From NCBI GenBank assembly GCA_902537615.1, contig CACBBU010000005.1, positions 16,581 through 80,580 on the forward strand: DNA of 64,000 nt, read 5' to 3'. The stretch's first letter is position 1, and each line of letters starts with the position of its first letter. Shown here one piece after another: positions 3,280 to 15,236 of this stretch. Both the position numbers and the translations under genes were made by a program. Origin of the DNA: an uncultured Alphaproteobacteria bacterium. GTDB taxonomy: Bacteria; Pseudomonadota; Alphaproteobacteria; Methylaequorales; Methylaequoraceae. The notes below the pieces were generated by a model. That model was not told the origin of the DNA. It was given only the letters and a program-made list of their open reading frames with translations, and searched no databases.

Positions 3280-3340
3280 TATTTTCCTCTCTTTGTTGAA
3301 AAGTTAAGATTTAAAAATAAAGAATAATGAGGAAACAAAT

Positions 3341-3369
3341 ATTACAGAATTGTTACAGTTTTATGACAT
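3341..3369 (-). promoter_or_regulatory. Pho box (three half-sites, 11-bp period) upstream of pstS
   Basis: Minus strand ATGTCAT-AAAA-CTGTAAC-AATT-CTGTAAT versus the PhoB consensus CTGTCAT-N4-CTGTCAY. Confidence 0.9.
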
Positions 3370-6914: not shown

Positions 6915-8174
6915 TTAAAAAGCCTCTTTGTTAATACTCAATTTATTTGTAAAAAAGACATTAATCATTATCATTATTGTTGAAGTTGCTAAGCAAACAA
7001 TTATGCCTCCAAATTGATATGAAATTCCAGAAAATAGTGTTCCAAAGAATCTTCCAAATGCGTTTGCCATATAATAAAAACCTACATCTAAGGCAACCCT
7101 TTCTTTTTTCGTGAATTTTAAAATTAAATATGAATGTAAAGACGAATTTACGGCAAAGATAAATCCAAAAGTAATCAACAGAATAATAGTAATTATTAAT
7201 TGTATTTGTTCGGATTTGCTGACTAAGTAAATTAAAAAAGTGAATATTAACAATGTTATAAATAAAAACTTACACCATTTTTTTGATTCATTTACTAATG
7301 ATTGTTCAGATTTTATTTTTAAATTTATTATAGATGGTCCCATAGCTTGAACAATACCGTAGAAGATAACCCAAATAGCCATTAGGCTACCAACTATAAA
7401 AAATGGTGTTGAATTAGTTTGCTGTTCAGAAACTGAAAAAAAACTATAAAAATAAACAGGAACACCAACTACAAACCAAACATCCCTAGAGCCAAAAAGG
7501 AAAACTCTTGCTAAAGATAAATAATTTATATTTCTTGATTTTGATCTAATATCAGAAAGCCTTACCTTTTTGTTACCGCTTGGTAGTTCAGAGGAGATAG
7601 AAATCATAACTATTGTTAATATTCCAACTAATAAAAGAATCATCAGAGTTAAAGAAGGTTCAAAACCAATAGTTGAAAGTAATAAGCCTCCAACAAGAAA
7701 ACCTAACCCCTTTAAGGCATTCTTTGAGCCAGTAAGAAATGAAACTAATTTAAATAAGTTTCCCTTTTTTTTTGATGAAATAAACTTTACAACTGATTTT
7801 GACGACATTTTTGTGAGATCTTTTGCAATTCCACTAAAGCCCTGTACGATCATAACATAGATAATTGACAGCTCTAAAGCCCAACTTTTATCAAGCATTA
7901 AAAGTAGCGTTAAAGAGACTATTTGAATTGACAAACCAGAAAACAACGTACTCTTTAGACCAAATCGTGAAGCTAACCAACCTCCGAAGTAATTCGTAAT
8001 AATCCCTGCTAACTCATAAACAAGAAATAGGTAAGCTAGTTCAATGGGTGTAAACCCCATAGAGTGAAAATGTAATAAAACTATCATTCTCAGAGCACCA
8101 TCGGTGAGCATGAAAGACCAATATGAAAGTGTTATTAAAAAGAAAGTTTTCTGTTTTTGATAAATATTTTTCAC
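6915..8174 (-). CDS. arsJ: Organoarsenical efflux MFS transporter ArsJ
   Basis: YWSFMLTDGALRMIVLLHFH, AKDLTKMSSKS, LTGSKNALKG, RDVWFVVG and DVGFYYMANA are ArsJ-family signatures. Confidence 0.9.
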   Translation of the reverse strand: MKNIYQKQKTFFLITLSYWSFMLTDGALRMIVLLHFHSMGFTPIELAYLFLVYELAGIITNYFGGWLASRFGLKSTLFSGLSIQIVSLTLLLMLDKSWALELSIIYVMIVQGFSGIAKDLTKMSSKSVVKFISSKKKGNLFKLVSFLTGSKNALKGLGFLVGGLLLSTIGFEPSLTLMILLLVGILTIVMISISSELPSGNKKVRLSDIRSKSRNINYLSLARVFLFGSRDVWFVVGVPVYFYSFFSVSEQQTNSTPFFIVGSLMAIWVIFYGIVQAMGPSIINLKIKSEQSLVNESKKWCKFLFITLLIFTFLIYLVSKSEQIQLIITIILLITFGFIFAVNSSLHSYLILKFTKKERVALDVGFYYMANAFGRFFGTLFSGISYQFGGIIVCLATSTIMIMINVFFTNKLSINKEAF

Positions 8175-9169
8175 AAAAATGACCCTACCATCTGGGATAC
8201 ATCTATTAGTCGCTCAGCATAACCAATTTCATTATCATACCACGCATAAATTTTTACCTGTGTTTCGTTAATAACCATTGTACAATCAGCATCAATTATT
8301 GCTGACCTTTTATCACTTAGGTAATCAGTAGAAACGAGTGGTTTTTCCTCATAACCTAATATTCCTCTAAGTTCTTGTTCAGAAGCTTTTTTAAGAAGAT
8401 TATTTATTTCTTTCTTGTTTGTTTTCCGAGAAACTTCAAATACACAATCAGTTAAGGATGAATTTAAAAGAGGTACTCGTACGGCTTGACCATTTAATTT
8501 TCCTAGTAATTCAGGATAAATTAGAGTAATTGCTTTAGCGCTTCCTGTGGTTGTTGGAATTAGAGAATTCAGTGCAGATCTTGCTCTTCGAAATTCTTTA
8601 TTTGCCTTATCAACTATTGTTTGGGTATTCGTTGGGTTGTGAATTGTTGTAATTGACCCGTGTTTTATACCTATATTCTCATGAATTACTTTAACAATCG
8701 GTGCAAGACAGTTAGTAGTACAGCTTGCAGCAGTAACTATATCGTATTTTTTGGAATCGTAGATATCTTGATTAACCCCGTAAACAATGTTAGCTATATT
8801 TTCATCTTCAATGGGAGCAGAAACGACAACTTTTTTAACACCCATGTTAAAGTAATTCAAAAGTTTAGATCTTGATTTATAATAACCAGTACAATCAATA
8901 ATAATATCAACATCTTCCAACTCAATATTTTCAATAGTAGAGCTTGTTTGAAAGATTATTTTTTTATCATTTATAGTGATAGATTTCTCATCATTACTAA
9001 AATCAGCATCCCATTTTCCATGAACTGAGTCATATTCAAGAAGATGACGATGTAAATCAATCGTTCCCGAAGAATCATTTATCCAGGAAACTTTAGCCTC
9101 TCTCTCAATAAGTGCTTTAAGTGCAAACTTTCCAATCCTTCCAATTCCGTTGATTCCGTATGTAACCAT
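8171..9169 (-). CDS. gap: ArsJ-associated glyceraldehyde-3-phosphate dehydrogenase
   Basis: GINGIGRIG, TAASCTTNCLAP, TNTQTIVD...RRARSA and WYDNE motifs; 4-bp overlap with arsJ. Confidence 0.9.
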   Translation of the reverse strand: MVTYGINGIGRIGKFALKALIEREAKVSWINDSSGTIDLHRHLLEYDSVHGKWDADFSNDEKSITINDKKIIFQTSSTIENIELEDVDIIIDCTGYYKSRSKLLNYFNMGVKKVVVSAPIEDENIANIVYGVNQDIYDSKKYDIVTAASCTTNCLAPIVKVIHENIGIKHGSITTIHNPTNTQTIVDKANKEFRRARSALNSLIPTTTGSAKAITLIYPELLGKLNGQAVRVPLLNSSLTDCVFEVSRKTNKKEINNLLKKASEQELRGILGYEEKPLVSTDYLSDKRSAIIDADCTMVINETQVKIYAWYDNEIGYAERLIDVSQMVGSFL

Positions 9170-9191
9170 TTGATATCGTTACTTTGAGATT

Positions 9192-9209
9192 GTTACAGTT
9201 TTATGACTG
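9192..9209 (-). promoter_or_regulatory. Pho box upstream of gap-arsJ-ppk1-ppx
   Basis: Minus strand CAGTCAT-AAAA-CTGTAAC; 19 bp (9189-9207) are identical to the pstS box (3349-3367). Confidence 0.85.
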
Positions 9210-9248
9210 TTTTAACGGTGTTTTACAAACGTCCTATCAAATTAATAG

Positions 9249-9296
9249 TTAAGTCCACCATGTCCTAATTATACTTTTAGGTCATGATGGATTTAA
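9249..9296. repeat. Imperfect 20-8-20 inverted repeat at the 3' end of the Lys-rich gene
   Basis: TTAAGTCCACCATGTCCTAA-ttatactt-TTAGGTCATGATGGATTTAA; 17 of 20 positions complementary. Confidence 0.8.
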
Positions 9297-9299
9297 ACA

Positions 9300-9956
9300 C
9301 TATTGTTGACTAGGTTCCTCTTTTTTAGTTGCACTAGTAGGAGATGTGATATCAGTTTTTATATTTATATTTTGAGCGGAAACTTTATCAAGAGAACCAT
9401 TTGGCTTTGTAGCTTTTAATTTGTTTGATTTCGATGGTTTCTTGGGTTTCATCAAACTGATTTTTTTATTCAACTTTTTATTGTTATTTTTTAGTTTGCT
9501 TATCGTCTTTTTTGGTTTTTTTAGTTTGCTCACTAATTTTTTATTAGTATTTTTGAGCTTACTAATTGTCTTTTTTGGTTTTTTTAGTTTGCTCGCTAAT
9601 TTTTTATTTATATTTTTGAGCTTACTAATTGTTTTTTTTGGTTTTTTTAATTTACCCTCTAATTTTTTTTTTGACTTTTTTAATATATCAAGTTTTTTAA
9701 GAGGTTTGTTTAACTTTATAACTTTAGCTTTTAAGTTTGCATTCTTTTTTTTTAAACTTTTAATAGCTTTTTTTGCATCAGATTTCTTTTTGACGCTTTC
9801 AATTGCTAAGCAACTTAGACCTACAAATTTTGGCAATTTCTTAGATCTTTTTAACTTTTTTGGATCTAGACCAGTTAATTTAGCAAATCTTTTATTTGAT
9901 ATTTTGTTTTTTTTTTCCCAGCGTTGAAGCTGTTTAGGTTTTGTTAATAATTTCAT
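9300..9956 (-). CDS. Lysine-rich (74/218) protein with a degenerate XRE-HTH-like N-terminus and 21-aa heptad repeats
   Basis: SD-like AGAGAGGA upstream; its own sigma70 promoter; N-terminus resembles the 67-aa HTH at 10550. Confidence 0.7.
   Translation of the reverse strand: MKLLTKPKQLQRWEKKNKISNKRFAKLTGLDPKKLKRSKKLPKFVGLSCLAIESVKKKSDAKKAIKSLKKKNANLKAKVIKLNKPLKKLDILKKSKKKLEGKLKKPKKTISKLKNINKKLASKLKKPKKTISKLKNTNKKLVSKLKKPKKTISKLKNNNKKLNKKISLMKPKKPSKSNKLKATKPNGSLDKVSAQNINIKTDITSPTSATKKEEPSQQ
9465..9653 (-). repeat. Three 63-bp coding tandem repeats (KLKKPKKTISKLKNxNKKLxx), plus a degenerate unit extending to ~9716
   Basis: Read directly in the translation, aa 102-164. Confidence 0.9.
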
Positions 9957-9994
9957 TAATTTCCTCTCTTTAAATAGTTAAATTATCAGTGCTT

Positions 9995-10022
9995 ATTGTA
10001 CGCACTTATTGCGTAATGTCAA
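9995..10022 (-). promoter_or_regulatory. Sigma70 promoter TTGACA-16-TACAAT with operator TACGCA-N5-TGCGTA (9999-10015) filling the spacer
   Basis: Minus strand TTGACA TTACGCAATAAGTGCG TACAAT. Confidence 0.75.
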
Positions 10023-10033
10023 TATGTTATTAC

Positions 10034-10333
10034 TCAGAAATTCTTAATTATATTATTAATTTCAATTCGATTGAATAATTTGTCATTGGAGGTTTTCTTG
10101 AAGTAATCAAGCTGACTATGGGTTAAGCAAATAGTAATCTTTTTTTCTAGAGTTATCCCATTATTTTCAAAATTACTAGAAGCTTTTAACTTTCCATTAA
10201 TAATTCTCGAAGTGTACGTACAGACTACTTCTGAATTGTGTCTAAAAGAATTATCTGCTTCAATATCTTTAATAAAACCCTCAGAATCATAGAGTGGTCC
10301 AATAAAGGTTATGAAAACTAACACCCAATTCAT
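10034..10333 (-). CDS. Hypothetical 99-aa protein with a hydrophobic N-terminus and two Cys
   Basis: ORF track; start overlaps the stop of an upstream sORF (ATGA). Confidence 0.55.
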   Translation of the reverse strand: MNWVLVFITFIGPLYDSEGFIKDIEADNSFRHNSEVVCTYTSRIINGKLKASSNFENNGITLEKKITICLTHSQLDYFKKTSNDKLFNRIEINNIIKNF

Positions 10334-10407
10334 TTATTAACTTTTTTTTTGTCCTGAGTTTTTTTTTTGTTTAATACAAATTGCCAATATACTAAATGTC
10401 CAAGCAT
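10330..10407 (-). CDS. Unannotated 25-aa small ORF MLGHLVYWQFVLNKKKTQDKKKVNK
   Basis: GAAAGGA SD 5 nt before ATG; stop overlaps the start of the 99-aa ORF. Confidence 0.45.
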   Translation of the reverse strand: MLGHLVYWQFVLNKKKTQDKKKVNK

Positions 10408-10432
10408 ATAAATCCTTTCAAAGTTTTATCCA

Positions 10433-10488
10433 CACGCAATATTTGCGCACTATAATTAATAAATACGCACCAATTGCGTATTTGTCAA
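10433..10488. promoter_or_regulatory. Two more operator palindromes (10433-10449 imperfect; 10461-10483 AAATACGCA-N5-TGCGTATTT) and a minus-strand TTGACA (10483-10488)
   Basis: Same core and spacer length as the 9999-10015 site; in the divergent intergenic region upstream of the XRE gene. Confidence 0.75.
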
Positions 10489-10549
10489 TATTATTTTTTA
10501 TATTTGTTTGTTTTTATTATTTATCTATACTTAAAAACTGGTCGAATTC

Positions 10550-10753
10550 ATGAATAACGAGCAATTCAAAAAATGGAGAAAAAAGCACAATTTGTCTCAA
10601 TCAGAGGCTGCTATTACCCTTGGTTTAAAAAGGAGGATGATTCAGTATTATGAAAAAGGAAAAAAGGGGGAGAAAGATGTGAAAATTCCAAAATATATCA
10701 AATTAGCTTGTGAAGCCATTGATCTTAAGAAAAAATTAAAAAAAATGATTTAG
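10550..10753 (+). CDS. Small XRE/Cro-family helix-turn-helix regulator
   Basis: FKKWRKKHNLSQSEAAITLGLKRRMIQYYEKG is a typical XRE HTH pattern. Confidence 0.85.
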   Translation: MNNEQFKKWRKKHNLSQSEAAITLGLKRRMIQYYEKGKKGEKDVKIPKYIKLACEAIDLKKKLKKMI

Positions 10754-10771
10754 TTAAAAGGAGTAAAATAA

Positions 10772-11314
10772 ATGAGTAAGAGTTTTGTAATGAAAATTGG
10801 GGAGTCTTTAGTTGCAGGAGGGCCTCCAGGAACCGCAGCGGAGCCAGAAGTAGTTATTGGTGAATTAGACGGTCCCTTTGGGACTGCTTTTGCTACTCTT
10901 ATTGGAAACCAGATCAAAGGCCATACTAAGGTCCTGGCAATAATGAATACTGATGTTATGGTAAAGCCCGCAACCCTTATGGTTAGCAAAGTTACAGTTA
11001 AGGATGATAAATACACCAATATTTTAATGGGAACAGTACAGGGCGCGATTGCTAATGGTGTTTTAGATTCAGTTAAAGAAGGATATATACCCAAAGATAG
11101 GGCAAATGATTTGGGAATAATAGTTTCTGTCTGGTTAAATCCCTTAGTAGCTAAGGATGAGAGTCTAGATCATAAAATACTTTTTGATATTCATAGGAAG
11201 GCAACAACTAATGCTATTAAAAAAGCTATGACCAATGAACCTTCTATAGATTGGTTGTTAGAAAACCAGGACTCGATTATTCATAAATACTATCAAAAAG
11301 AACTAGATAAATAA
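10772..11314 (+). CDS. fae: Formaldehyde-activating enzyme family protein (divergent Fae2/Fae3-type paralogue)
   Basis: GESLV...IG.LDGPFGTAFA, KPATLMVSKVT, GTVQGAIANGVLDSV.EG.IP and EPSIDWLL motifs; AAAGGAG SD. Confidence 0.85.
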   Translation: MSKSFVMKIGESLVAGGPPGTAAEPEVVIGELDGPFGTAFATLIGNQIKGHTKVLAIMNTDVMVKPATLMVSKVTVKDDKYTNILMGTVQGAIANGVLDSVKEGYIPKDRANDLGIIVSVWLNPLVAKDESLDHKILFDIHRKATTNAIKKAMTNEPSIDWLLENQDSIIHKYYQKELDK

Positions 11315-11316
11315 TA

Positions 11317-11379
11317 GTGTATATGCACTTATAATATGTAAGCACAAATTATTATTTAAGTGCATACGCACATTTTTTT
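11317..11379 (+). terminator. Long-stem hairpin with a T tract after fae; probable terminator
   Basis: GTGTATATGCACTTA (11317-11331) pairs with TAAGTGCATACGCAC (11357-11371), followed by T7. Confidence 0.55.
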
Positions 11380-11429
11380 CTTTTTATATAATAACTAGTG
11401 GCGATTTAAATAAGTGTATAAGCACTTAC

Positions 11430-12827
11430 TTAGATTAGATGCTTTGTGATTATGACTGTGAAGGTTATTAAAACCAAAAGCAAAGAAAGAAAAACGGCAG
11501 CACTTCCAAGATCCTTGGCACGCTTAGATAAATCATGTTGAGAAAAAGAGATCCTATCAATAGCTGCTTCAACACTAGAGTTAAGAAGTTCAACTATTAA
11601 TAAAATTAACAAGCTACCAATCATTAATATTTTTTCAATTGGAGATGTAGGAAAAAAAAATATGGAGGGAAAAAGAAGTACACTCAATAGAAGCTCTTGC
11701 CTGAAAGCGCTTTCCTCTTTAAAAGCAAAAACAAAACCGGACAGACTATTTATCAATGCAAAAAAAAGTCTTTTAAATCCAGTGTTCTTTTTGTGAGGAT
11801 TATCATTAAAAATATAAGTTTTCGGATTTCTTTTAGATGCGATTTGTAAATTTGATTCAAATATACTAGCCACTCGTTCCCACTTAAATTTCTTTGCATG
11901 GTTAATTGGCACTGAGGGTTTAATTTGAATTGCCTTCTCGCAAGCTTTTTGTAAACTTTTATCCAAAACTCCAGCACCACTGTTACCAATTACATTTAGA
12001 GGACCTGAAACGGGAAAAGCTGCTACAGGAAGCCCACATGCCATAGCTTCAAGAATAACAAGGCCAAAGGTATCAGTTTTACTAGGAAAAACAAAAAGAT
12101 CGGCTTTTCCATAAAGATTAGGAAGTTCTTTGGGCGACTTTTGTCCAAAAAACCTAACATTAGGGTATTTTTTTTCCAATTTACGTTTATCCGGACCATC
12201 ACCAACTACCCATTTGTCACAATTAATATTGAGACTAAGGAATTCTTCAAGATTTTTTTCAACAGCAACGCGTCCAACATTTATCAAAATTGGCCTGGAA
12301 TTTTTAATTTTTTTTTTTGGTGGCTTAAACAAGCTTGTATCAACTCCTCGAGGCCATTCTGTTGTGTTTTTAATACCCCAATCACTTAATTCCTCCATAA
12401 TAGATTTAGTTGGTGTTAAAATTTTGTAAGCTTTATTGTGAAACCATCTCAAGTAGCTGTAACTTAAAGAAAGTGGTAATCTTGACCTTTCATAAATATA
12501 TTCCGCAAATCGTGTATGAAAAGATGTCGTATAAGTAAAACCATTTTTTACAACAAAATTCCTAGCAGCAAGGCCAAGGGGACCCTCCGTTACAATATGA
12601 ATAGCATCCGGTAAAAAGTCTTTGATCATTTTTTTTACTTTATTGTAAGGAAATAAAGCAAGACGAATCTCCGGATATGTGGGACAGGGAAAAGTATTGA
12701 AAAGGTTTGGAGTAATCATTTGAACATGGTGGCCTCTTTTTTCTAGTATTCTTTTAGTATGACTTAAGGTGTGAACAACGCCGTTGACTTGGGGCATCCA
12801 CGCATCTGAAATTATGGATATTTTCAT
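11430..12827 (-). CDS. Fusion of a GT4 glycosyltransferase (Agt-like glycolipid synthase) and diacylglycerol kinase DgkA
   Basis: N-terminal DAWMPQVNGV, VGRVAVEKN and FPSKTDTFGLVILEAMACG; C-terminal ~119 aa EESAFRQE, ELLNSSVEAAIDRI and RAKDLGSAAV. Confidence 0.9.
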   Translation of the reverse strand: MKISIISDAWMPQVNGVVHTLSHTKRILEKRGHHVQMITPNLFNTFPCPTYPEIRLALFPYNKVKKMIKDFLPDAIHIVTEGPLGLAARNFVVKNGFTYTTSFHTRFAEYIYERSRLPLSLSYSYLRWFHNKAYKILTPTKSIMEELSDWGIKNTTEWPRGVDTSLFKPPKKKIKNSRPILINVGRVAVEKNLEEFLSLNINCDKWVVGDGPDKRKLEKKYPNVRFFGQKSPKELPNLYGKADLFVFPSKTDTFGLVILEAMACGLPVAAFPVSGPLNVIGNSGAGVLDKSLQKACEKAIQIKPSVPINHAKKFKWERVASIFESNLQIASKRNPKTYIFNDNPHKKNTGFKRLFFALINSLSGFVFAFKEESAFRQELLLSVLLFPSIFFFPTSPIEKILMIGSLLILLIVELLNSSVEAAIDRISFSQHDLSKRAKDLGSAAVFLSLLLVLITFTVIITKHLI

Positions 12828-13638: not shown

Positions 13639-13660
13639 GTTAAATTAATAACAATATTTT

Positions 13661-13678
13661 GTGTCAAAATTATTACAA
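13661..13678 (-). promoter_or_regulatory. Degenerate Pho box upstream of plcP
   Basis: Minus strand TTGTAAT-AATT-TTGACAC; 22 nt from the ATG, the same distance as the gap box. Confidence 0.6.
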
Positions 13679-15173: not shown

Positions 15174-15218
15174 TTAATAAAATTAATAATGTTAAAGAAA
15201 AATTAGTATAATGATTCT

Positions 15219-15236
15219 GTAACAGTTTTATGACAA
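15219..15236 (-). promoter_or_regulatory. Pho box upstream of the porin
   Basis: Minus strand TTGTCAT-AAAA-CTGTTAC. Confidence 0.85.

Follow-up and report, generated by a model that had tools for sequence, protein, structure and literature searches.

The 64-kb window analysed here (64,000 nucleotides of contig CACBBU010000005.1, from an uncultured alphaproteobacterium) carries a five-gene unit at positions 9249-11379, within a cluster of phosphate-related (Pho) genes. One of these genes, xre, encodes a 67-amino-acid helix-turn-helix (HTH) protein of the XRE family, which is probably a local Cro-type autorepressor that acts on the palindrome ACGCAM-N3-KTGCGY at the overlapping divergent promoters of xre-fae and sORF-orf99 and at the promoter of a gene for a Lys-rich protein. 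The palindromic sites of the unit are conserved among relatives, follow the XRE orthologue group into other orders of Alphaproteobacteria and are unique to the unit in the source genome, which comprises 1,232,828 bases in 46 contigs with 29.8% G+C and is 78.7% complete. XRE would bind these sites and repress rather than activate transcription from the predicted starts, and xre and fae would be co-transcribed.

Probable operators and promoters of the five-gene unit

The unit consists of the following open reading frames (ORFs), bounded by hairpins:

9300-9956, minus strand: Lys-rich gene, 218 aa
10034-10333, minus strand: orf99, 99 aa
10330-10407, minus strand: sORF (small ORF), 25 aa, MLGHLVYWQFV... 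with a Lys-rich tail; its stop overlaps the orf99 start (ATGA)
10550-10753, plus strand: xre, 67 aa, XRE-family HTH gene (Pfam HTH_3)
10772-11314, plus strand: gene of a paralogue of the formaldehyde-activating enzyme Fae (Fae180), 180 aa, 18 bp after xre (PF08714)
9243-9302, minus strand: terminator-like hairpin 3' of the Lys-rich gene; RNA fold -21.5 kcal/mol, z -4.59, none of 200 shuffles as good
11317-11385, plus strand: intrinsic-terminator-like hairpin with a U-run 3' of fae; RNA fold -18.9 kcal/mol, z -3.18

An earlier note on this DNA had described this layout, including the 18-bp gap between xre and fae and the divergent orientation, and the ORFs and a direct reading agree with it. 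The hairpins said to bound the unit are confirmed by RNA folds compared with shuffles, on the left (z -4.6) and on the right (z -3.2 and -4.0), where the second hairpin has a fold of -9.0 kcal/mol. A search of 9000-11600 against Rfam, with E up to 1, returned zero families.

Three copies of a palindrome, one of them imperfect, had been reported in the unit, and they are found by direct reading at the same positions:

9999-10015: operator O1, TACGCA-CTTAT-TGCGTA, covering the spacer and -10 of the Lys-rich promoter
10433-10449: operator O2, imperfect, CACGCA-ATATT-TGCGCA, in the spacer of the candidate xre-fae promoter
10464-10480: operator O3, TACGCA-CCAAT-TGCGTA, in the spacer of the candidate sORF-orf99 promoter

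The arms of O3 reach 9 bp (AAATACGCA/TGCGTATTT), and the distance between O2 and O3 is 31 bp from centre to centre. With at most one mismatch, ACGCA-N5-TGCGT has three matches in the window, all at the five-gene unit (core starts at 10000, 10434 and 10465), where 0.13 (sd 0.34) would be expected by chance; none of 100 shuffles gave three.

The earlier note had proposed a scan of the genome for ACGCA-N5-TGCGT. The core occurs in three perfect copies and in eight with one mismatch, and the reversed-pattern control gives five. The third perfect copy (contig C1:158831) was rejected as an operator and is probably due to chance, since it lies within a 1645-aa ORF and is without the T/A flanks. In a genome-wide ranking by a position weight matrix (PWM), for which 21 orthologous sites were used, the three local sites come out on top, with 30.1 (O3), 23.5 and 23.4 bits. 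The matches ranked next (18.3 and 15.3 bits; C2:48073 and C7:51578) lie inside ORFs of 1138 and 601 aa and were likewise discarded, and a further match at C8:4707 has 12.5 bits. In the genome as assembled (1.23 Mb, 78.7% complete), none of the other perfect cores and PWM matches of at least 15.3 bits is a convincing intergenic copy of the operator.

The window and 9/9 complete orthologous loci have all three sites, with at most one mismatch, in corresponding places, and both sites visible in a locus cut by a contig end (L025) are present. Alignments of seven non-redundant rows from three genera were used to count invariant columns. In O1, 14 of the 17 columns are invariant, as are 6/6 of the adjacent -35, compared with 20/78 in the rest of that intergenic region. 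O2 has 11 invariant columns in its 15-column core (six invariant, three variable, five invariant and one variable) and O3 has 10 of 15; the -35 beside O2 and O3 is invariant in 6/6 columns and the rest of that intergenic region in 37/99. Across the orthologous loci of three genera the half-sites are invariant and the central three nucleotides vary. The pattern of O2 and O3, with six columns kept, three variable and five or six kept, leads to the refined operator ACGCAM-N3-KTGCGY.

The promoters assigned to the unit are:

10022-9995, minus strand: Lys-rich promoter, TTGACA-N16-TACAAT; promoter scan, 11 of 12 consensus matches; -35 invariant in 6/6 columns
10429-10456, plus strand: candidate xre-fae promoter, TCCACA-N16-TATAAT; promoter scan, 10 of 12; TTATCCAC invariant in 8/8 columns
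10488-10460, minus strand: candidate sORF-orf99 promoter, TTGACA-N17-TATTTA; -35 invariant in 6/6 columns; O2 just downstream of the predicted start

The minus-strand TTGACA said to lie 1-2 nt from each perfect palindrome is indeed 1 nt from O1 (10022-10017) and 2 nt from O3 (10488-10483). Position and half-site conservation in three genera also bear out the placement of these palindromes in the promoters of the Lys-rich gene and of sORF/orf99, to which O2, in the candidate xre-fae promoter, is added. In two other genera the alignment reads TATATT at the -10 of the sORF-orf99 promoter, where this genome has TATTTA.

The sequence TTATCCACA at 10425-10433, directly left of O2, is invariant in all aligned loci and is identical to the DnaA-box consensus. 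It is not enriched in the genome (20 copies, 15 expected) and could be no more than the -35 region of the xre promoter.

Proposed circuit

The 67-aa XRE/Cro-type protein most likely binds ACGCAM-N3-KTGCGY as a dimer. O2 would lie in the spacer of the plus-strand promoter of xre itself and O3 in that of the back-to-back minus-strand promoter of sORF-orf99, each promoter falling within the early transcribed region of the other. Because these promoters overlap and O2 and O3 are three helical turns (31 bp) apart, simultaneous occupation of both sites would shut transcription in both directions. A dimer on O1 would block the spacer and the -10 of the Lys-rich promoter, and occupation of O1-O3 would repress all three transcription units, that of xre included. 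As XRE contains no sensor domain, it would have to leave the DNA through dilution, turnover or a partner, and one candidate for such a partner is the Lys-rich protein, apparently a paralogue of XRE with a shortened third helix.

XRE and its orthologues

XRE matches Pfam HTH_3 (PF01381) over residues 7-39 with 28.3 bits (cut-off 23), and its best solved relative is the C-terminal HTH of the hypothetical protein NE0471 (2auw, E 4e-7). Orthologues in the same low-GC family are 79-99% identical, and all eight that were compared have an identical segment L24-K42, in which the third helix KRRMIQYYEKG lies. A scan of one genome per prokaryotic species gave 329 confirmed relatives, of which 80 were kept, 17 in the low-GC family and 63 elsewhere. 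The latter, from Rhodospirillales, Hyphomicrobiales, Parvularculaceae and others, are about 56-65% identical to XRE and have an invariant LGLKxRMIQYYEKG.

Outside the family the neighbours of xre are housekeeping genes (ispB, a methyltransferase gene, sppA and an sspB-like gene); no homologue of Fae, orf99 or the Lys-rich protein was found beside the XRE orthologues of other orders in the loci examined. The source genome has no second copy of xre. XRE is accordingly not specific to an islet, as the earlier note had assumed, and is this genome's only member of an orthologue group that is distributed across Alphaproteobacteria.

The 250 nt before the XRE orthologue were scanned in the 63 loci outside the family and compared with 1636 control windows of 250 nt from the same loci:

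perfect site: 11 of 63 loci, 2 of 1636 controls
site with at most one mismatch: 17 of 63 loci, 13 of 1636 controls
site with at most two mismatches: 39 of 63 loci, 186 of 1636 controls

The palindrome therefore precedes xre in other orders as well, which answers the question that the earlier note had raised about the orthologue upstream regions. Multiple sites, two to four at a spacing of about 30 bp, are present in several outside loci. In two Rhodospirillales loci (L064 and L066) the palindrome fills the spacer of TTGAGT/TTGAGA-N17-TAAAAT, a layout that matches the candidate xre-fae promoter. In four of five Rhodospirillales chromosomes of about 4 Mb, the sole perfect ACGCAC-N3-GTGCGT is the site at xre. 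Within the low-GC family, perfect sites occur in 0/5 genomes that are without XRE and in 4/5 that bear it, always at the module; one genome (G016) has two extra copies of the palindrome, both inside ORFs. By comparison across genomes, XRE thus appears to have a cognate palindromic operator at its own promoter.

Several points weigh against the assignment of XRE as a local autorepressor. The -10 of the sORF-orf99 promoter (TATTTA) is poor in this genome, and a simple promoter scan did not list this promoter. The assignment of the xre-fae promoter stands on a 10/12 consensus match and on analogy, and if xre were transcribed from another promoter closer to its start codon (TTGTAA-N17-TATTAA, in one genus), O3 would precede the -35, a position compatible with activation rather than repression. 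In the fifth Rhodospirillales genome the sole perfect site is elsewhere (L129, G070:C1:3006341), 24 of the 63 outside loci show no site even with two mismatches allowed, and in one relative (G014/L048) the operators have drifted and XRE is intact. Distant targets may be unassembled in a genome that is 78.7% complete. Finally, binding by XRE, the transcription starts and the response of expression are predictions.

The palindrome of L129 lies between DsbA-like and aldo-keto-reductase-like ORFs, which were named by reading their translations.

In four marine metatranscriptome runs, each from a different study, contigs carry the Lys-rich gene, orf99, the sORF and portions of fae, and three RNA-library contigs (X1, 9603-10224; X2, 9580-10394; X3, 9889-10350) bridge the intergenic region of O1. 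These contigs are uninformative on strand, starts or single transcripts, may stem from DNA carry-over and do not cover 10424-10806, a gap that carries no weight as evidence.

A limited search of the literature for XRE-family autoregulation through a palindrome in Alphaproteobacteria returned nothing on this orthologue group, which may be described elsewhere.

Conservation of the module

Orthologues of the Fae paralogue (77-100% identity) are present in 29 of the 37 family genomes searched, most of which also hold a canonical copy of about 36% identity. Twenty Fae loci of relatives were fetched and compared. The order arsJ-gapdh-LysRich-orf99|XRE-Fae|GT-PlcP-porin is kept in nine of them, and a tenth, cut by a contig end, agrees where it is visible. 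Two loci contain only a relic of the C-terminal half of XRE, and in the remaining eight Fae is found without XRE, orf99 or the Lys-rich gene. In seven of these eight (L019, L023, L026, L027, L032, L033 and L034) Fae is divergent from pstS-pstC, and in the eighth it faces gapdh-arsJ.

XRE itself occurs in 19 of 42 species genomes of the family, many of which are incomplete, and in six of its 14 genera. Fae was also searched in 17 of the XRE-bearing genomes. In 15 of these xre and fae are immediate neighbours, 13 pairs sharing a strand and two (G005 and G018) being convergent; in G013 the genes are separated by 114 kb, and in G021 no Fae was found. In two loci (L051 and L052) Fae is inverted behind XRE, no Lys-rich gene was found in the locus and operator-like sites persist.

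XRE, fae and the Lys-rich gene thus co-occur in relatives, a co-occurrence that the earlier note had proposed to look for. The unit is, however, not the self-contained islet described there, because the same gene order stands at the same chromosomal place in nine of the 20 relatives' loci, and in the one that is cut, from three genera. It is a conserved chromosomal module with lineage-specific gains and losses. Nor is Fae a cargo that depends on XRE, as had been proposed, since the same paralogue is found in the Pho cluster of eight loci that are without XRE, orf99 and the Lys-rich gene; Fae is part of the backbone of this cluster. The claim that XRE controls a five-gene module consequently holds in part: the palindromes appear to behave as XRE operators at three promoters, and the dependence of Fae on XRE is not upheld.

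The relics of XRE point to a module that was lost rather than gained elsewhere. In one genus only the C-terminal half of XRE is found upstream of Fae: it is a 58-aa ORF in L024, and in L022 a tRNA-Met (7267-7343) stands directly before the relic. At another locus (L049, at about 116.9 kb of G013:C1) an intact xre is head to head with a fragment of the C-terminal half of the Lys-rich gene, and no operator was seen there. The seven loci in which Fae is divergent from pstS have triple Pho-box repeats in between, oriented for pstS.

The Lys-rich protein and alternative readings of the palindromes

The Lys-rich protein contains an XRE-related N-terminal domain (residues 1-58), a basic helix of about 110 residues made of 21-aa repeats, which correspond to 63-nt repeats in the DNA, and an invariant C-terminal motif. 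Its orthologues in three genera are 63-95% identical, and the family is tiny, with 15 proteins found. The relation of this protein to HTH proteins, which the earlier note had claimed, is supported by hhalign, which aligns the N-terminal domain with XRE over 50 columns (probability 88%, E 3.1e-6). The alignment has a 9-residue gap in the Lys-rich domain exactly at KRRMIQYYE, the recognition helix of XRE. The AlphaFold model shows helices at residues 7-16, 21-28, 32-37 and 57-168, of which the third has six residues.

Matches to Pfam and NCBIfam families (CENP-F, SMC, Rad50, MukB and others) are far below the curated cut-offs, and no function was read from them because they reflect the long basic helix. 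Residues of about 185-207 (window 9300-9390) contain NGSLDKVSxQNINIKTDITxP, which is invariant in three genera and disordered in the model; this C-terminal motif is possibly a docking peptide.

A complex of XRE with the N-terminal domain (1-58) was predicted with a score of 0.48, compared with 0.01 for the best of three controls, with 100% agreement of contacts between runs and a partner pLDDT (predicted local distance difference test) of at least 79. This is weak support, as the mark applied is reached by 58/80 solved complexes and 2/110 mismatched pairs, and at scores of up to 0.60 by 7/80 and both of the mismatches. Because the chains are paralogous HTH domains, the score may also reflect likeness to solved HTH dimers, and the predicted complex is taken as a lead.

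A wider proposal, which is considered unlikely, is that XRE belongs to an uncharacterised alphaproteobacterial family of mini-repressors, with its own promoter as essentially the whole regulon, that an abundant streamlined marine lineage has recruited to gate a module in a phosphate/arsenate stress cluster. The Lys-rich protein would act by heterodimerising with XRE, as an anti-repressor or a tether, and the two paralogues would form a switch over a non-canonical Fae and two small proteins that are exported or membrane-associated. If so, the Lys-rich protein would still have the contact surfaces, with most of the DNA-reading helix gone and a polycationic coiled coil added.

The homology of the Lys-rich N-terminal domain to XRE (hhalign 88%), the presence of O1 at its gene and the helix-turn-helix-like helices 21-28 and 32-37 of the model also raise the question of whether this domain reads the palindromes, either by itself or as a competitor of XRE in the manner of the CI and Cro switch with its two repressors. 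Such a role is quite improbable, given the 9-residue gap at KRRMIQYYE and a modelled third helix of only six residues. Moreover, the palindrome is also found before XRE orthologues of other orders, where no homologue of the Lys-rich protein or of orf99 was seen in the loci, and operator-like sites persist in the two loci, L051 and L052, in which no Lys-rich gene was found.

There is only a slight chance that the palindromes act mainly as RNA hairpins, with O3 as an attenuator or terminator in the leader of xre or of the sORF. The plus strand of the O3 region does fold well (-11.5 kcal/mol, z -4.8) and is followed by a U-rich tract, and a terminator scan lists O3 on both strands. Its minus-strand fold is, however, ordinary (z -1.56, 15/200 shuffles as good), O1 and O2 are without U-tracts, and the sites are at a fixed distance from the -35 hexamers. 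The half-site sequence is kept across genera and orders, and the changes seen are one-sided (ACGCA to ATGCA, TGCGT to TGCAT or TGCGC) and not compensatory, which speaks against hairpins.

It is highly improbable that the unit is a mobile-element remnant, a toxin-antitoxin pair or a defence system against phages, with XRE as an immunity, antitoxin or control protein: the weak matches of XRE to RstR (27.1 bits, cut-off 80), the MqsA family (24.3, cut-off 61.8), PHROG phrog_8 (E 1e-6) and PADLOC HTH_VI (E 1.2e-5) are, like all its matches to phage repressors and antitoxins, generic to HTH proteins and below curated cut-offs; neither PADLOC nor those PHROG families that have a known function give a match to orf99, the sORF or Fae; the matches of the Lys-rich protein are all weak and of coiled-coil type (Rz-like spanin, JetC, LmuB; best E 0.0005); no integrase, repeat boundary or compositional break was seen; and the unit holds the same chromosomal position in three genera, with XRE orthologues elsewhere among housekeeping genes. 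A type II antitoxin (MqsA, HigA or HipB) was rejected as an identity of XRE on the scores for MqsA_antitoxin (15.8 bits, cut-off 30), TIGR03830 (24.3, cut-off 61.8) and couple_hipB (16.7, cut-off 71.65). A type II toxin-antitoxin operon was also discarded, the predicted co-transcribed neighbour of xre being Fae, which is no known toxin.

The small proteins sORF and orf99

The sORF is kept as an ORF of 24-25 aa, with conservative changes and the ATGA overlap with orf99, in 11/11 loci read. The orf99 protein has a hydrophobic N-terminus (W3, GPL at 12-14) and two invariant cysteines (38 and 69), and its family comprises seven clusters among 1.84 billion representatives. Searches of Pfam, NCBIfam and PADLOC returned zero families for orf99, and its one PHROG match (E 0.037), also the only one among orf99, the sORF and Fae, is a family without a known function. 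A profile match to a 6098-aa repeat protein was set aside as a sum of weak repeats (E 0.0003 to 0.4 each) that are without the cysteines. In the ESM Atlas orf99 gives only leads at 0.86, below the threshold of 0.9. Its predicted fold is unreliable, with an AlphaFold pLDDT of 66.9 in one model and 35-40 in the other four, and Foldseek returned zero matches at E of 0.001 or less.

The divergent Fae paralogue

Fae180 passes the family cut-offs of both PF08714 (202.1 bits, cut-off 27) and TIGR03126 (135.4 bits, cut-off 118.05), and shares 36% identity with the genome's canonical Fae. It carries AAEPEVVIGELDG where the canonical copy and the solved enzyme (1y5y) share the N-terminal VAHIDLIIGPRG, a stretch whose His is presumably catalytic in Fae. 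The canonical copy, with VAHIDLIIGPRG, lies on contig C33 (307-3534), next to Mch (PF02289, methenyl-tetrahydromethanopterin cyclohydrolase) and two further ORFs. The neighbourhood of Mch indicates that the lineage has a one-carbon (C1) module linked to tetrahydromethanopterin (H4MPT). With Mch and a canonical Fae, the genome was rejected as one of the Pelagibacter type of SAR11. Fae180 shows no such linkage, as it sits between xre and the lipid-remodelling genes.

The Fae paralogues of methylotrophs, fae2 and fae3, are of unknown function. Fae180 resembles Fae and these paralogues in passing the Pfam and NCBIfam cut-offs, in a genome that has the H4MPT marker Mch. It differs from the solved enzyme in being without VAHIDLIIGPRG and in its location outside the H4MPT cluster and inside the Pho cluster.

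A Fae-like domain was also seen in PDB entry 8ub7 (chain B, 'Avd', 290 aa), where residues 126-286 match Fae180 with E 2.9e-19, nearly the score of Fae itself.

In PMC3160333, HTCC1062 is described as being without a formaldehyde-activating enzyme, and the glutathione-dependent Gfa is discussed; that organism belongs to another lineage and the statement is inapplicable here.

Setting in the Pho cluster

The gene order in the window is pstC, pstS, ppx and ppk1, followed by arsJ with its associated gapdh, the five-gene unit, a GT4-diacylglycerol-kinase fusion, a PlcP-like metallophosphoesterase, a porin and phoR. Repeats of TRTKACA every 11 nt, the Pho-box consensus, were searched with a motif derived from the pstS promoters of relatives. 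The window has 19 matches to such Pho-box-like tandem repeats, where 7.6 would be expected. They include the following, all oriented for a minus-strand gene:

3340-3368: upstream of pstS, perfect
9191-9208: upstream of gapdh-arsJ, nearest to the five-gene unit
13660-13677: upstream of the PlcP-like phosphoesterase gene
15207-15235: upstream of the porin gene

Zero matches to TRTKACA-N4-TRTKACA, with up to two mismatches, are found in 9249-11379, so that the unit, as had been noted earlier, is inside the Pho cluster and yet without a Pho box.

At 6915-9169, arsJ, which encodes an organoarsenical efflux transporter of the major facilitator superfamily, and a dedicated gapdh stand within the phosphate cluster, behind a Pho-box-like repeat. 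Their placement suggests that arsenate detoxification is co-regulated with phosphate starvation. On the other side of the unit (11430-12827), one ORF combines a GT4 glycosyltransferase with a prokaryotic diacylglycerol kinase domain and is adjoined by the PlcP-like phosphoesterase gene, and the two look like a lipid-remodelling pair. In some relatives the fused ORF matches in two or three pieces.

Significance and comparison with known systems

Transcription factors are very few in streamlined marine bacteria, which makes it useful to link any of them to an operator and its targets. The present analysis supplies an operator (ACGCAM-N3-KTGCGY), three target promoters and a circuit that can be tested, for a regulator family that extends across Alphaproteobacteria and is, as far as searches of the literature and of family libraries show, without a described function. 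The location of a divergent Fae beside pstS, arsJ-gapdh and the lipid-remodelling genes raises the question of whether C1 or pterin chemistry is linked to phosphate and arsenate stress.

Hc1, AlgP and the tails of PhaF are Lys-rich, histone-H1-like DNA-binding proteins of bacteria. The Lys-rich protein is similar to them in its long polycationic repeat region containing Lys and Pro, but its repeats are fused to an XRE-derived N-terminal domain and to an invariant C-terminal motif that is not basic.

The circuit is of the standard XRE/Cro autorepressor design. As in the Cro/CI-type (XRE, HTH_3) autorepressors, there is one small HTH protein, a short spaced palindrome between or over the -35 and -10 hexamers, predicted autoregulation and divergent transcription. 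Unlike those repressors, xre is without a phage context and belongs to an orthologue group that resides among housekeeping genes across Alphaproteobacteria.

In tetR/tetA of Tn10, two palindromic operators about three helical turns apart lie in overlapping divergent promoters, and one repressor shuts off its own gene and the cargo. The spacing of O2 and O3 and the back-to-back promoters of xre-fae and sORF-orf99 are similar to this arrangement and would follow the same shut-off logic. However, XRE is not a member of the TetR family and contains no ligand-binding domain, and a third operator, O1, serves a gene 450 bp away. What is new with respect to these systems is the precise operator of a mini-repressor orthologue group, its lineage-specific cargo and a divergent Fae that is a fixed part of the Pho cluster.

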